Origin: Candidatus Latescibacterota bacterium
GTDB taxonomy: Bacteria > Latescibacterota > UBA2968 > UBA8231
Length of the DNA stretch: 64,000 nucleotides
Assembly: GCA_965206595.1 (NCBI GenBank)
Contig: OZ242214.1
Coordinates: forward strand, 5,664,001-5,728,000
Reading direction: 5' to 3'
Shown: positions 49,722 to 54,874 of the stretch, piece after piece
Layout: every line of letters starts with the position of its first letter
Position numbering within the stretch: position 1 is the stretch's first letter
Translations under genes and position numbers: made by a program
The notes under the pieces: generated by a model
The model's input: only the letters and a program-made list of their open reading frames with translations
What the model was told of the DNA's origin: nothing
Databases searched by the model: none

Positions 49722-49747
49722 TACCGGATGACAGGAAAAGGTGTCGG
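49722..49747 (-). promoter_or_regulatory. Promoter-like motif copy A
   Basis: Minus strand: ccgacac-cttttcctgtcat-ccggta. Confidence 0.65.
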
Positions 49748-49857
49748 GTGTGGCTGAGGCAAAGTGAAGGCCAAAATCGGTGCGTCGGTCCATGAAAAAT
49801 CTCAGGCCGGCTCGGAAGAAAAATGGTGGTGGTCCAGACAAAACTGATGACAATAAA

Positions 49858-50030
49858 CTGGCGCAGGTCGCTTTCGGAAATCGCACTCTCAGGAGGTCTT
49901 TTCATGGGGGTCGCCGTATCCGGAGAATCTGCAACACACAACCAATCCCGAAAATACCGACAAACCCCAAAACCCGCGTAGGTATTTCTTTATATGCTCA
50001 AACTACAACTGCAGGGGACTGAACGGTTAC
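49858..50030 (-). mobile_element. Relic of the left end of the IS66-family element
   Basis: Closely similar to ~59686-59856, ends ctgaacggttac; flanked by caataaa on both sides. Confidence 0.88.
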
Positions 50031-50045
50031 CAATAAAGAAACCAA

Positions 50046-50071
50046 CCGACATTTTCCCAGATTCTTCGGTA
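50046..50071 (+). promoter_or_regulatory. Promoter-like motif copy B
   Basis: ccgacat-tttcccagattct-tcggta. Confidence 0.6.
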
Positions 50072-50080
50072 AGAATAGGT

Positions 50081-50610
50081 GAACCTATCTCAAAATTGAA
50101 ATTGTTTAAGTAAAATCAAAATGGATGCAAGTTGGACGAAGCCAAGAAAATTCTCCGGATACAATTCCCAGCGAGTGATCACCCGACGCTGCCATTGAAG
50201 CCAAGCAAAGAATCTCTCAACCATCCAACGCCGCACATATCGCCGCAATCGCCGTCCATCCTGAGTCTTTTTCTTGGTCCGATTCTGGCGATGCGGAGCG
50301 ATCATCTCGATCCCGTCTTTCTTAACTACTTCATCCAACCAATCGCTGTCGTACGCTTTGTCACCGATCAAGTTGTCAGGTTGGTCTTCGATCAGGTAAA
50401 AGTCAAAAGTCAACTGAACCAGCGTCACTTCATGATGGTTCGCTGCATGCGTGCTCACCGACAAGGGAGGCCCATTGCCGTCCACGATCCCCATGACCCG
50501 CACCCCCTTACCTCGCTTGGTGTGGCCGATATCGGCACCTCCACCCTTGGCCGCCGAGAACATGCCATCGATGAAAGCCTCCGATTCGTCCAGGCCCCCT
50601 TGCTCGTGAA
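50081..50610 (-). mobile_element. IS5-family element, 5'-truncated
   Basis: FIDGMF, TKRGKG, GDKAYDSD, RWMVERFFAWL. Confidence 0.88.
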
Positions 50611-50615
50611 GTGTC

Positions 50616-51268
50616 TTTGAATAGAAGTTTTGGGATGTGAACGGACTGTATCTCGATCCCCCAGAAAAGGCCCTGGTCCTGTGTTGCGACGAGAAGTGCC
50701 CGTGTCAGGCGTTGGAGCGCAGTCAGCCGGGCTTGCCTTTGGGCGTGGGGGAGCTTCGCACCAGGACGCACGACTACAAACGCCACGGGACGATCACCCT
50801 GTTTGCCGCGTTGAACTACCTGGACGGCAAGCTCATCGCACGCACCGAGGAGCAGCACACCCACGTGGAGTGGCTGCGCTTCTTGAAACAGATCGACCGA
50901 GAAACCCCGAAGGAGTTGGATCTGCACCTGATCGTCGACAACTACAGCACGCACAAAGAAGACAGGGTCAAACAGTGGCTGTCTCGGCACCCGCGCTTTC
51001 ACCTCCATTTCACTCCGACCGGTTCGTCCTGGTTAAACCTGATCGAACGTTTCTTCGGCGAACTGACGCAGGACGTGATCCGCGATGGCAGCTTCTCCAG
51101 CCTCAAAGCGCTGGTGAAAGACATCGAAAGCTATCTGGCCGAGAGGAACCGGAACCCCAAGCCCTACAAGTGGAAGGCGCGAGGCGAGGACATCCTGCGC
51201 AAGATCCAACGCGCCCGGCAGGCGCTGGAAGCCGAGCAGGGTTAATTCCTTCTATTTAACGGACACTA
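50616..51268 (+). mobile_element. IS630-family element, 5'-truncated
   Basis: [33 protein letters not shown]; right end acggacacta. Confidence 0.9.
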
Positions 51269-51270
51269 CA

Positions 51271-52530
51271 TTAGGTTGGTTTTGCCATGCGGTAGCCGAC
51301 GCGATTCGCAGTGAAGATATACGTGGGATTGCGTGCATCGTCGCCCAGCTTCTGACGAATGTCTTTTACATAGCCCCGTACGGCCTGCGGATCGTCCGAG
51401 TGACCCGAACCCCAGACCCGTTCCCCCAATTGACGGTGGGTCAACACCCGCCCGGCGTTGGCGGAAAGCTCGTGTAGCAGCCTGTACTCGGTCGGGGTCA
51501 GCTCAACCTGACGGCCGGCAAGGGTCACGGACCGTTCTTCGTAGTCGATCGTCAGGTTTCCGAGCCGATAGAGTGGCGGCATACCAGCCCGCGGCGGTTG
51601 TGGATCCTCGACTGTTGATTGAGCGTCCAGCCCCTTTCCCTCACCCCCAAGAACCGGGATGCGATGCCCCTGGCCTTTCTTGTCTGCCACGGGAATGGCG
51701 AAGGTGATTCGCGTACTGCCGCCCGTTTCGACGCCCACCGCCCATATCCGGCCGCCATGGGCCTCCACTATGCCCTTGCAGATCGCCAGGCTTAAGAGGC
51801 TGGCTCGTACGTCTTGCTCCCGGTTCTCGGAATCTATCCAAGAGAACTTTTCGACCTGATTCGGGAGGTGCACCGCTGAAATTCCCCTGCTCTCGTCTGC
51901 TACAGAGATCGCCACGAGGAGATCCGCAGCCCAAGCGGTCACCCTGATGGTAGACCCGTGGGGTGAGTACTTGGAGGCGTTGACGAAGAGCCTGTCCAAC
52001 ACTTGCAGGATGCGCTGTTTTTCCGCCATTACCTGGGGAAGGTTCCCCGGAAGATCGACATCGACGGGGTTTCGGGCTCCACTGAGCAGGAAGGTAGACC
52101 TGGCGTGGTCGACCAAGGCGGGGACATCAGTTGGCTCAGTTACAAATGAGAGATCTCCGGCCTCGACTTGGGTCATGTCGAGAAGGTCGTTGATCAGGCT
52201 GCGCAGAAGGTTGGCCTGATCGTCGATGATTTGAAATAGATGACGCGTCTCCACAGGGTCGGGTGGAGATGAGGCGGTGAGCGCCATGGTCGTCGAACCC
52301 TTGATGGTGGAAAGCGGAACCCGCAGCTTTTGGCTGACCTTGGAGAGGAACTCTGAACGCATCCTTCCAACTCCTTCAGGGGCGTGATCTCATGGATAAC
52401 GGCAGGAGCCGACAGGACCTACCGTCTTTCGAGTGAATCGGTGTTGTGACGACGAGCGCGGTGATCGGGGTCGTCGTCACGATGGAGGGCCATATGGTGG
52501 GTGCGCACGGTCTCGCCTTTGACGAGCCCG
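51271..52530 (-). pseudogene. Degenerate PAS-histidine kinase-OmpR wHTH hybrid (open ORF 51271-52362)
   Basis: H-box VSQKLRVPL lacks the His; G-boxes eroded; no receiver domain; LTPTEYRLL...GYRM wHTH; frameshifted PAS relic upstream. Confidence 0.75.
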
Positions 52531-53389: not shown

Positions 53390-53480
53390 GCAAGACTACC
53401 GGTTGCCCGCAGAAGCGGAGGCCTTTGTGGGTGTCGCCGCACCGGTGTCCTCGCAAGGCTTCCGCTTCTGTGTTTGAGGC
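53390..53480 (+). ncRNA. Putative structured cis-regulatory RNA/attenuator, copy 1
   Basis: Stem cagaagcggaggcctt...aaggcttccgcttctg (53410-53470), conserved with copy 2. Confidence 0.55.
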
Positions 53481-53532
53481 GGGCCTTCCGGCCCCAGGAA
53501 ATACAATCGCCCCACCCGGTTGGCTCAGACGT

Positions 53533-53558
53533 CCGACACTTTTCCCGATTTGCCGGTA
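53533..53558 (+). promoter_or_regulatory. Promoter-like motif copy C
   Basis: ccgacac-ttttcccgatttg-ccggta. Confidence 0.65.
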
Positions 53559-53634
53559 TGAAACCGTAGCTGAACCGGAACGGAATCAAGGGAACCATGG
53601 GATTGAACGGCGTGACCGAAACGGACCAACTGGA

Positions 53635-53967
53635 ATGACCGATGGTATAACCAAGGCGGCCCTGACTCCTGCCAGGCGCCGCCTTGTCGAAATGATGCAG
53701 GAGACCAACTTCGGGCGCATCGAAGGGCTCGAAGTGCGCAACGGGGAGCCCGTTCTCGATCCACCGCCCAGGGCGGTGCGCCAGATGGTGTTCGGCAAGA
53801 AGAACGGACCGAACGCGGGCCGCTCCAACAGCGGCTGTGCACTCAAGAAGAAAGTGGCGGAATTGTTCGAGGTCTTCGACCGGGAGCAGACGTTCCGGGT
53901 CCTGGAACTCGTGATCGACGATGGCCTGCCCGTCCGCATGACCGTGGCGGACGGGGATCGGACCTGA
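53635..53967 (+). CDS. Hypothetical 110-aa protein, copy 2
   Basis: Same length as copy 1 and highly similar. Confidence 0.85.
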   Translation: MTDGITKAALTPARRRLVEMMQETNFGRIEGLEVRNGEPVLDPPPRAVRQMVFGKKNGPNAGRSNSGCALKKKVAELFEVFDREQTFRVLELVIDDGLPVRMTVADGDRT

Positions 53968-54003
53968 ATCCGGCCCCCAGGGAATAGACACGGTCTTTCA
54001 CAC

Positions 54004-54090
54004 CAGACAACCGGCTGGCCGCAGGAGCGGAGGTCGTTGTGGGTGTCGCCGAGCCGGCGTCCTCACAAGGCTTCCGCTTTTTTGTTTGAG
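54004..54090 (+). ncRNA. Putative structured cis-regulatory RNA/terminator, copy 2
   Basis: Stem ggagcggaggtcgttgtggg...ctcacaaggcttccgcttt running into a U-rich tail (ttttttgttt); upstream of the sigma gene. Confidence 0.6.
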
Positions 54091-54151
54091 GCGGCCTTGC
54101 CGGTCCAGGTCGACCCCTGCGCCCGCTTCTGCCCGGCCCGGAGGAGGCGCA

Positions 54152-54742
54152 ATGAGTTTTGACCCCCGGCAAGGCGGCATCGACCCCTATGCCGCACAGC
54201 ACATTCGGTTCAAGGCCAGGCAGCTGGCCGGGCGGGCAGGTTTCGGGGCCGGCGAGCGCAAGGACCTGGAACAGGAGCTGTTCCTGGACCTGTTGCAACG
54301 GCTTCCCCAGTACGACCCGGAGCGCGCGCGGCGCACCACCTTCATCTCCCGGGTGGTGGCCAACCGGGTCTCGACCCTAATCGAGTCGCAGAAGGCGGGT
54401 TTGCGGGATTACCGTCTCCGCGGCGGCTCGTTGAACGAGCGCCTGGAGGACGAGGAAGGGCGTTCGGTGGAGCGCCTGGACACCCTGGATGGGGAGGACT
54501 ACCTGCTGCGCACCGGGGCGGTGTCGCGGCCGTGGGAGGAGCGGCAGGCCCTGGCCATCGACCTGGCGGCGCTGCTGGAAACCCTGCCGCCGGAGTGGCG
54601 CCTGCTGTGCCGCCGTCTGAGGGTGGAGACGGTCTCGGAGATTTCCCGGGATACCGGGATTGCGCGAGGGACGATCTACGAGTGGATCGGGAAGCTGCGG
54701 GGGATCTTCGAGGAGGCGGGCCTGAGGGAGTACCTCGAATAG
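54152..54742 (+). CDS. Sigma-70/ECF-like sigma factor of mobile-element type
   Basis: RBS GGAGGAGG; region 2 DLEQELFLDLL..YDPER..TFISRVV; region 4 TVSEISRDTGIARGTIY. Confidence 0.85.
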   Translation: MSFDPRQGGIDPYAAQHIRFKARQLAGRAGFGAGERKDLEQELFLDLLQRLPQYDPERARRTTFISRVVANRVSTLIESQKAGLRDYRLRGGSLNERLEDEEGRSVERLDTLDGEDYLLRTGAVSRPWEERQALAIDLAALLETLPPEWRLLCRRLRVETVSEISRDTGIARGTIYEWIGKLRGIFEEAGLREYLE

Positions 54743-54848
54743 GGGGTACCGATGTCGGGCTCCTAGATTGGAATGAAGGGCTCCGTGGCTCGTGAGTTCT
54801 AGTGGGGCGTTCTATTCGAGATGGTTCGAGGAAAAGAGGGAAGGAATC

Positions 54849-54874
54849 CCGACACATTGCTTCAGATTCCGGTA
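54849..54874 (+). promoter_or_regulatory. Promoter-like motif copy D
   Basis: ccgacac-attgcttcagatt-ccggta. Confidence 0.65.

Follow-up and report, generated by a model that had tools for sequence, protein, structure and literature searches.

A probable phage sigma factor and promoter switch kept without its phage in a Latescibacterota genome

Several phages encode sigma factors that redirect transcription to the genes of later classes, among them gp28 and gp33/34 of SPO1, gp55 of T4 and the extracytoplasmic function (ECF)-like gp36 of coliphage phiEco32. A sigma-like positive control factor, Xpf, is also found in PBSX, a defective prophage of Bacillus subtilis, where it is encoded downstream of the repressor and activates the late genes. 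Here, we analyzed a 64,000-nucleotide stretch of a Candidatus Latescibacterota genome (contig OZ242214.1; hereafter the window), in which a gene at 54152-54742 for an ECF-like sigma factor of 196 amino acids (aa) is accompanied by four copies of the bipartite motif CCGACAY-N13-YCGGTA. Judging from its relatives, the sigma factor is of phage descent but lies outside any phage, and the four motifs are probably promoters that it reads, a phage sigma-promoter switch kept without the phage. The window copy is best read as a phage remnant or a domesticated cassette.

The family of this sigma factor resembles the phage sigma factors above in that a small, phage-encoded sigma stands at the end of a preceding gene block and its own promoter consensus is repeated before later blocks. 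Unlike them, it occurs in temperate serine-integrase phages across many phyla, is accompanied by a 110-aa partner and an RNA hairpin, and has phage-free copies. Compared by description, the likeness to Xpf is that a prophage-derived element keeps a private sigma-like factor in the chromosome. However, PBSX still makes particles, whereas the window has no structural genes and its putative promoters face a lineage-specific, non-phage gene family. With cellular ECF (group 4) sigma factors, the window factor shares a length of about 195 aa, two predicted domains, a bipartite putative target of fixed spacing and a site upstream of the sigma operon. It differs from them in having no recognisable anti-sigma factor, in a conserved upstream neighbour without a known fold, and in its putative target, CCGACA and GGTAnGTA instead of AAC and CGT. 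The literature on phage sigma factors that we consulted, passages of PMC9429907 among it, is general work, in which we found no description of this sigma family, its motif, the 110-aa partner or the hairpin.

A first-pass annotation of the window, made from the sequence alone, had reported four intergenic copies of the motif. All four were exactly reproduced in position and strand. They span 5.2 kb, and each lies in a gap between open reading frames (ORFs) accepted as genes. In the following, IS stands for insertion sequence and L001 for the nearest related locus.

Site 1, 49722-49747, minus strand: CCGACAC-N13-CCGGTA, then AGTAAC; the ATG of a 123-aa gene (49620) follows after about 100 nt.
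Site 2, 50046-50071, plus strand: the weakest copy, divergent to site 1; an IS5-type fragment has its end 18 nt further on.
Site 3, 53533-53558, plus strand: the ATG of the second copy of the 110-aa gene (53635) follows after 76 nt; the L001 ortholog of the site is at 3087.
Site 4, 54849-54874, plus strand: 107 nt past the sigma stop codon; the ATG of an IS-split gene (55095) follows after 220 nt; the L001 ortholog of the site is at 10694.

Three of the sites face genes (at about 100, 76 and 220 nt from the start) and site 2 runs into the IS5-type fragment after 18 nt, as had also been proposed. The four matches in the window compare with 0.01 expected per shuffled window; none of 100 shuffled windows contained four or more, and the maximum in any shuffle was one. 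The relaxed patterns CGACA-N15-CGGTA, GACA-N15-CGGTA and CCGACA-N13..17-CGGTA returned the same four sites and none extra. When the flanks of the four copies were compared, no similarity outside the motif was found, so that the sites are not copies of a longer repeat. A scan for sigma-70 promoters gave no such promoter at the four sites and one hit elsewhere, fewer than in shuffles.

To place the motif among its relatives, genome contigs were searched with a profile made from the sigma alignment, which yielded 79 loci of up to 20.6 kb each, 1,281,414 bases in total, from more than 10 phyla (Latescibacterota, Acidobacteriota, Thermodesulfobacteriota, Chloroflexota, Planctomycetota, Nitrospirota, Zixibacteria and others). 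The nearest, L001, is also from Latescibacterota, and its sigma factor is 89% identical to that of the window. Cultured strains, as candidate lysogens, are represented by Syntrophus buswellii DM-2 (L019), Desulfosarcina alkanivorans PL12 (L026), Desulfosarcina cetonica JCM 12296 (L018) and Syntrophorhabdus aromaticivorans UI (L035). The strict motif occurred 63 times in 31 of the 79 loci and not once in the same sequences reversed. The motif alignment, built on 70 unique cores among 89 regular-expression matches, gave the extended consensus cCGACAc-TTt-N-cCGGTA-n-GTA(A/T)C, which is longer than the pattern given in the first-pass annotation. At a threshold of 12 bits or more, the resulting 35-nt matrix had 177 hits in the loci and the window, 173 of them in the loci, and none in the reversed control; at least one matrix site was present in 74 of the 79 loci. 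Sites 1 to 4 of the window scored 35.2, 24.3, 37.9 and 36.0 bits, respectively, and the rest of the 64 kb held no match at this threshold. In the window and L001 sites, CGGTA is mostly followed by GAAAC or GGAAC instead of GTA(A/T)C.

The sites keep a regular position relative to the sigma gene. A complete sigma gene followed by 60 nt or more of sequence is present in 73 loci, 62 of which have a site that starts no more than 25 nt past the sigma stop codon; site 4 is the window counterpart of this post-sigma site. Of the 173 locus sites, 144 lie on the sigma strand and 29 on the opposite strand, the latter before minus-strand packaging genes. Relative to crude ORF calls, which cover 84.8% of the bases, 110 sites fell outside, 8 partly inside and 55 inside, so that 110 of 173 lie in the roughly 15% of bases outside ORFs. 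A same-strand ORF start was found between -40 and +400 nt of 123 of the 173 sites, at a median of 79 nt, with calls that use the most upstream start codon and include wrong-frame ORFs. The genes downstream of the sites group into recurrent families. As a rule that takes the longest ORF downstream gave wrong-frame clusters (0, 3, 4 and 10), only clusters confirmed by Pfam, PHROGs or homology were relied on. The proposal of the first-pass annotation that the motif is the promoter of the 54152-54742 sigma factor is supported at the level of sequence by sites at sigma homologs in 74 of 79 loci against none in reversed controls, and the expected preferences for sigma homologs, for non-coding DNA and for one strand were likewise borne out in the related loci.

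The motif is asymmetric and bipartite, with fixed spacing and without dyad symmetry. Its -35-side block varies by sigma clade (CCGACAC, CCGACGG or CCGTCA), and GGTAnGTA is constant. CCGACA(C) would be a -35-type element and CCGGTA-n-GTA(A/T)C an extended -10-type element for RNA polymerase carrying the sigma factor. As the hosts span many phyla, the reader of the motif must travel with the element, and the sole element gene found in every site-bearing locus, L028 and L029 included, is the sigma gene. It is by this elimination and association that we argue for the sigma factor as the probable reader. A host sigma factor or regulator common to all hosts could instead read the motif, the nearness to the phage sigma gene being incidental, and host genomes do encode many ECF sigma factors. 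Yet the motif keeps its place relative to the phage sigma gene across more than 10 phyla, which makes a common host reader unlikely; the -35 block changes along with the sigma clade; and no site in the whole 64 kb of the window is more than 5.2 kb away from the sigma gene. As such, we regard a host reader as highly improbable.

The sigma factor of the window matched Pfam Sigma70_r2 (PF04542) at 27.1 bits, a narrow pass over the cut-off of 24, and aligned with TIGR02937 over residues 22-183 at 39.4 bits, under the cut-off of 42.9. Residues 151-184 gave weak matches to generic helix-turn-helix (HTH) families (E 0.004-0.06). Among family members, Sigma70_r2 was found in 43 of 43 at E of 0.1 or below (best 1.6e-9) and Sigma70_r4_2 in 12 of 43 (best 1.5e-5). 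The length of 196 aa, with homologs nearly all of 194-196 aa, fits an architecture of regions 2 and 4 only. A weak match (6e-10) was also obtained to phrog_1740, 'RNA polymerase sigma factor', and the family profile gave two borderline hits to PDB chains at E of about 0.009, one to the region-2 stretch of RpoE and the other to an HTH protein. A word-indexed protein search returned 170 sigma homologs, and among the 120 listed nearly all are 195 aa long and 56-69% identical, from unrelated bacteria; a full profile search gave 1,189 representative clusters at E of 1e-30 or below. The first-pass annotation had called the sigma factor an orphan. No anti-sigma family was found among the sigma neighbours by Pfam, NCBIfam or PHROGs, but the sigma factor is no orphan, the gene having a conserved upstream 110-aa partner and an RNA hairpin.

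In 50,697 sequenced phage records, sigma homologs were found in only four Wolbachia phage WO records, at 23-26% identity. One of them, a 164-aa ORF annotated as 'hypothetical protein' at 8983-9477 of MN180251.1 (L080), is 26% identical (E 2e-6) and stands at the junction between a minus-strand terminase and portal block and an oppositely oriented plus-strand block. Very distant as it is, this homolog shares the packaging-block junction with the Acidobacteriota prophages described below. Identical sigma proteins were also seen in metagenome-assembled genomes of different phyla, namely in L022 and L023 (Blastocatellia and Myxococcota) and in L009 and L014 (Desulfosoma and Ca. Ozemobacter). These pairs would reflect either a very broad host range of the prophages or wrongly binned contigs.

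Annotation of L007, L019 and L036 with Pfam and PHROGs identified them as prophages, and single ORFs of L035, L050 and L058 added HNH, Sak4-like, portal and primase matches. The prophage order starts with a large serine integrase (phrog_95), a small recombinase-associated protein and a LexA/CI-like S24 repressor (phrog_4), continues with two proteins of about 388 and 375 aa, and then reaches the 110-aa gene, the sigma gene and a site. After this post-sigma site come a 104-aa protein, a PD-(D/E)XK exonuclease (phrog_1218), a Sak4-like/AAA_24 protein, DUF669, ERCC4, a RecD-like helicase (phrog_4412), a large primase (phrog_47) and a further site, followed, depending on lineage, by an HNH endonuclease, the large terminase (phrog_2) and the portal (phrog_2739). 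NCBIfam holds no family for the 388-aa, 375-aa and 104-aa proteins. In Acidobacteriota prophages, the packaging block is on the opposite strand and is preceded by minus-strand sites. Sites also precede a 257-aa family (25 sites), whose position is before the terminase in L036 and after the primase in L007, as well as the HNH endonuclease in L035 and the portal in L036, L050 and L071.

Based on this order, the sigma factor, the upstream 110-aa gene, the hairpin RNA and the 123-aa gene would all derive from a widespread family of temperate phages. In these phages, the sigma gene would end an early operon of integrase, repressor and further genes of no known family, and its product would then activate the next blocks from sigma promoters of its own. 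The first sigma promoter, a few bases after the sigma stop codon, would serve the recombination and replication genes, and others would stand before the packaging and head genes. We infer the sigma factor as reader, the transcription start points and the order of this cascade. In the window and in five loci, the phage would have been lost, leaving the sigma cassette and a few sigma-type promoters. There, site 1 would drive a phage membrane-protein gene; site 3 would drive the second 110-aa copy together with the sigma gene, possibly as a positive feedback loop; site 4 would drive a lineage-specific gene of about 392 aa, whose product may be a glycoside-hydrolase-like enzyme; and the target of site 2 would have been destroyed by IS insertions. 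The features of the window on which this reading draws are as follows.

49249-49620, minus strand: 123-aa coiled-coil protein with a C-terminal transmembrane helix, behind site 1.
50090-50563, minus strand: IS5-type transposase fragment (Pfam DDE_Tnp_1).
50637-51245, plus strand: IS630-type fragment (Pfam DDE_3).
51271-52362, minus strand: histidine-kinase/OmpR-type DNA-binding hybrid, 363 aa (Pfam HisKA, HATPase_c and Trans_reg_C).
53024-53356, plus strand: 110-aa protein, copy 1, 80% identical to copy 2.
53415-53465, plus strand: hairpin element, copy 1, after 110-aa copy 1; aligns with the pre-sigma element of other loci.
53635-53967, plus strand: 110-aa protein, copy 2, directly upstream of the sigma gene.
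54027-54077, plus strand: conserved long RNA hairpin between 110-aa copy 2 and the sigma gene, then a T-run.
54128-54151, plus strand: small hairpin over the sigma Shine-Dalgarno sequence, from alignments and also predicted in the window fold.
54152-54742, plus strand: 196-aa ECF-like sigma factor with sigma-2 and a putative sigma-4-like HTH, of a phage-borne family.
55095-57745, plus strand: gene of about 392 aa, interrupted by ISL3.
55662-56960, minus strand: ISL3 transposase ORF inside the gene of about 392 aa.

The window was compared with every ORF of at least 70 aa in all loci. Apart from IS elements and the neighbours that L001 has as well, only the sigma gene, the 110-aa genes, the 123-aa gene and the split 392-aa gene had matches. 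The comparison brought up nothing in the window that is related to the integrase, repressor, replication or structural genes of the loci. Pfam assigned the window ORFs to IS elements and cellular genes. The earlier remark that no phage genes are seen is confirmed by this comparison for integrase, repressor, replication and structural genes. The idea of a prophage switch reused for other genes gains support as well, most related loci being clear prophages and sites persisting in loci without other phage genes.

Five loci (L001, L028, L029, L037 and L038) keep the sigma gene and sites without such phage genes. L001, L028 and L029, all from Latescibacterota, share a non-phage setting, in which the kinase hybrid and paralogs of a 360-393-aa family that includes the split gene occur together with PD40 beta-propeller and FGE-sulfatase-like proteins. 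Among the scanned ORFs of L028 and L029, there was no integrase, repressor, replication or packaging gene, and the 110-aa gene is also missing, but the sigma gene is kept with two sites each. The Acidobacteriota loci L037 and L038 form a second non-phage type, with IS elements, many ORFs of no assigned family and 4-6 sites. One of these sites lies upstream of the 110-aa gene, and two divergent sites face the 123-aa gene and a member of a 287-304-aa family, respectively. Sites 1 and 2 of the window have this same divergent arrangement, with IS debris in place of the second gene and no member of the 287-304-aa family.

In L001, tblastn located two complete sigma cassettes about 6 kb apart (L001:2744-5584 and L001:9631-12133). 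Behind each sigma gene come a site and a paralog from the 360-393-aa family. The window, with one sigma gene, looks like the upstream half of one L001-type cassette fused to the downstream half of the other. In a quick IQ-TREE maximum-likelihood tree, in which branches with support under 95 were not relied on, all six sigma factors labelled 'island' fell within one clade of 29 (Shimodaira-Hasegawa approximate likelihood ratio test, SH-aLRT, 99) alongside prophage sigma factors. The 'island' label requires two changes on the tree, of which strongly supported branches force at least one.

The window motifs could also be fossil phage promoters, that is, parts of a decaying prophage scrap with no present function, for whose loss there has been too little time. 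The region is rich in IS elements of IS5, IS630, ISL3 and IS66 types, and an ISL3 copy interrupts the 392-aa gene. Site 2 has lost its target, the kinase is truncated, and no phage replication or structural gene is left in the window. The state of the genes themselves points the other way. The sigma gene and both 110-aa copies are full length, and the ratios of nonsynonymous to synonymous substitution rates (dN/dS) against L001 range from 0.18 to 0.40 for these genes (0.40 for the sigma gene, 0.33 and 0.18 for the 110-aa copies); the two halves of the 392-aa gene gave 0.41 and 0.26. Moreover, three more loci from Latescibacterota have kept the same non-phage arrangement, with sites before paralogs of the same family; the cassette is present twice in complete form in L001, and the window sites score 24-38 bits. 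Considering both sides, the fossil reading seems doubtful, though it deserves real weight, and promoters read by the kept sigma factor remain our preferred explanation.

In 74 of the 79 loci, the 110-aa gene lies directly upstream of the sigma gene, at a distance that hardly varies (185-191 nt); the window and L001 each have a tandem duplication of it. Copy 2 had no Pfam, PHROG or NCBIfam family, and copy 1, scanned against Pfam only, had none there. The AlphaFold2 model is confident and has two alpha-beta repeats, with a predicted local distance difference test (pLDDT) score of 86.3 and a predicted template modelling (pTM) score of 0.80. A Foldseek search of this model against the PDB gave no match at E of 0.001 or below (best E 0.57), and the nearest Atlas clusters were unnamed and mostly viral. 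A predicted complex of the sigma factor with the 110-aa protein scored 0.00, which, as controls were not run, gives no verdict and was counted neither way.

We considered that the motif is bound by another protein of the element, for example by the 110-aa protein as an activator or repressor, and that the sigma factor reads something else. The close company of the 110-aa gene in 74 of 79 loci, its lack of a known family or fold and the departure of the motif from the classical ECF consensus would all suit such a role. However, all five loci without the 110-aa gene still carry sites: L028 and L029 have two strong ones each (28-30 bits), L061 has two, and L067 and L076 have one weak site each. 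In addition, the motif is directional, has no dyad symmetry and lies tens of bases before start codons, which is the pattern of a promoter and not of an operator. Another element-encoded binder is therefore improbable in our view, and the sigma factor is retained as the likely reader.

The gap between the 110-aa gene and the sigma gene is better conserved than both proteins. It contains a hairpin of about 50 nt, roughly 130-80 nt upstream of the sigma ATG, whose sequence is almost invariant across phyla and which is often followed by a T-run. Over 68 distinct sequences, 93.7% of cells in this long hairpin were paired versus 35-58% with slid partners, and both-side changes were found in 10 of 20 pairs versus 3.8 in shuffles, with none of 500 shuffles reaching 10. 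The window hairpin folded with z = -2.99. Many alternations between G-C and G-U and between U-A and U-G indicate an RNA of the sense strand. Rfam gave no match at E of 1 or below over 49000-56000. Among the five loci without the 110-aa gene, the long hairpin is absent from L028, L029 and L076 and present in L061 and L067. It looks like a terminator or a regulatory RNA.

A second, small hairpin (CCTCG-loop-CGAGG) overlaps the GGAGG ribosome-binding site of the sigma gene and was found at the same place in nearly all loci, L028 and L029 included (88.8% paired, both-side changes in four of five pairs). Its position suggests translational control of the sigma factor. An RNA hairpin and sequestration of the ribosome-binding site thus seem to take part in the regulation of sigma. 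More speculatively, the 110-aa protein, the hairpin RNA and the sigma factor could form a new sigma-control module in place of the usual anti-sigma factor, in which the 110-aa protein would act on the hairpin and the sequestered ribosome-binding site and thereby gate sigma read-through and translation. Bacteria (Latescibacterota and possibly Acidobacteriota) would have captured the module at least once for a small cellular regulon that includes a novel glycoside-hydrolase-like family. We think it unlikely that this picture holds, and offer it tentatively.

The first-pass annotation had also proposed that the sigma factor regulates its own gene. In the window, site 3 does lie upstream of the unit of 110-aa copy 2 and sigma. 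Across the family, a site within 400 nt upstream of this unit was found in only 3 of 74 loci (L001, L037 and L057), and a same-strand site somewhere further upstream in 40 of 74. As such, close-range autoregulation may apply to the window arrangement but does not appear typical of the family.

Several points weigh against the sigma factor as reader of a working set of promoters. The window sigma barely reaches the Pfam region-2 cut-off and misses that of TIGR02937. The motif has no AAC/CGT signature, which marks classical ECF promoters, and the gap between its blocks looks about 2 bases shorter than in these. Of the locus sites, 55 of 173 are within crude ORF calls. The training sites of the matrix were picked with the window-derived pattern, which 85 of the 173 locus hits match and 88 do not, so that part of the matrix count is circular, and since many loci are near-copies of one another, the per-locus counts are not independent and overstate the number of independent observations. 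With one target lost, one split by ISL3 and the neighbouring kinase truncated, the window cassette may be decaying. Furthermore, the terminator-like hairpin between site 3 and the sigma gene weakens the idea of autoregulation. Even so, we consider the reading of the four motifs as promoters of this sigma factor to be probable.

The gene behind site 1 is not unrelated cargo. The 123-aa protein has 70 homologs, nearly all of 122-124 aa and 54-98% identical, several of which come with a longest contig of the same length as one carrying a sigma locus, and it therefore belongs to the same phage family. In L029, the gene directly follows the sigma gene behind a site, and its dN/dS against L029 is 0.20. 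The protein has no Pfam family above cut-off and no NCBIfam family. We set aside this membrane protein as a candidate for the missing anti-sigma factor; its gene is usually more than 10 kb from the sigma gene, and nothing ties the protein to sigma binding.

An intact ortholog of the split gene behind site 4 is found at L001:10955-12133 (393 aa), to which the two halves are 76% and 70% identical. This family is rare and from Latescibacterota, with three hits in the word-indexed protein search, and all five site-downstream ORFs in its cluster (cluster 6: two from L001 and one each from L028, L029 and the window) follow a site. The 393-aa protein has no NCBIfam family. Its model, from a 7-sequence alignment, is of low confidence (pLDDT 58.5), and Foldseek related it to GH5, beta-amylase and GH42 barrels with E down to 2e-4 and template modelling (TM) scores of 0.3-0.46. 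As a lead only, the family may resemble glycoside-hydrolase TIM barrels.

Leftward of 49336, the window holds ordinary metabolic genes with about 68% G+C (Ldh_2, aldo-keto reductase, ATP sulfurylase and sulfatases), and rightward of it the G+C content is 53-64% and the DNA is full of IS fragments. The kinase hybrid adjoins the sigma cassette both in the window and in L001. Its L001 ortholog (L001:296-2497, minus strand) is 734 aa long with added GAF and PAS domains and 66% identical by tblastn; the window copy is truncated, and in a blastn alignment L001 positions 1645-2322 have no counterpart in the window. No receiver domain was detected in the hybrid.

IS elements are unusually dense at 33900-39754 and 50090-62761. 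ISL3-type transposase ORFs or fragments lie at 33900, 35213, 55662 and 61952. IS630 types are found at 50637 and 60112, a DDE_Tnp_1_4 type at 38222, and fragments of IS66 and IS5 at 58292 and 50090, respectively. Elsewhere in the window, 1015-13414 (minus strand) carries several large defence-like genes in a row. They encode a protein of 1008 aa that has a weak sacsin-type match, two ATPases of AAA/STAND type (TPR repeats are present in one), a protein that combines HTH and M78 (ImmA/IrrE-like), and an AAA_11/AAA_12 helicase of 1051 aa whose end resembles a DUF559/MTES_1575 nuclease. At 31454-33753 (minus strand), a BlaI-type repressor (Penicillinase_R) is located beside a BlaR1-type M56 peptidase ending in an ExbD/TolR-like domain.

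If our reading is true, a family of 1,189 representative clusters would come with a defined, portable promoter, CCGACA-N15-CGGTA-n-GTAwC, which would aid the annotation of these prophages and the prediction of transcription units in uncultured bacteria, and might supply an orthogonal sigma/promoter pair for synthetic biology. The hairpin and the partner protein without a known fold make the restraint of the sigma factor directly testable. The window and its phage-free relatives would then be a clear natural case of a phage transcription switch that has outlasted its phage.

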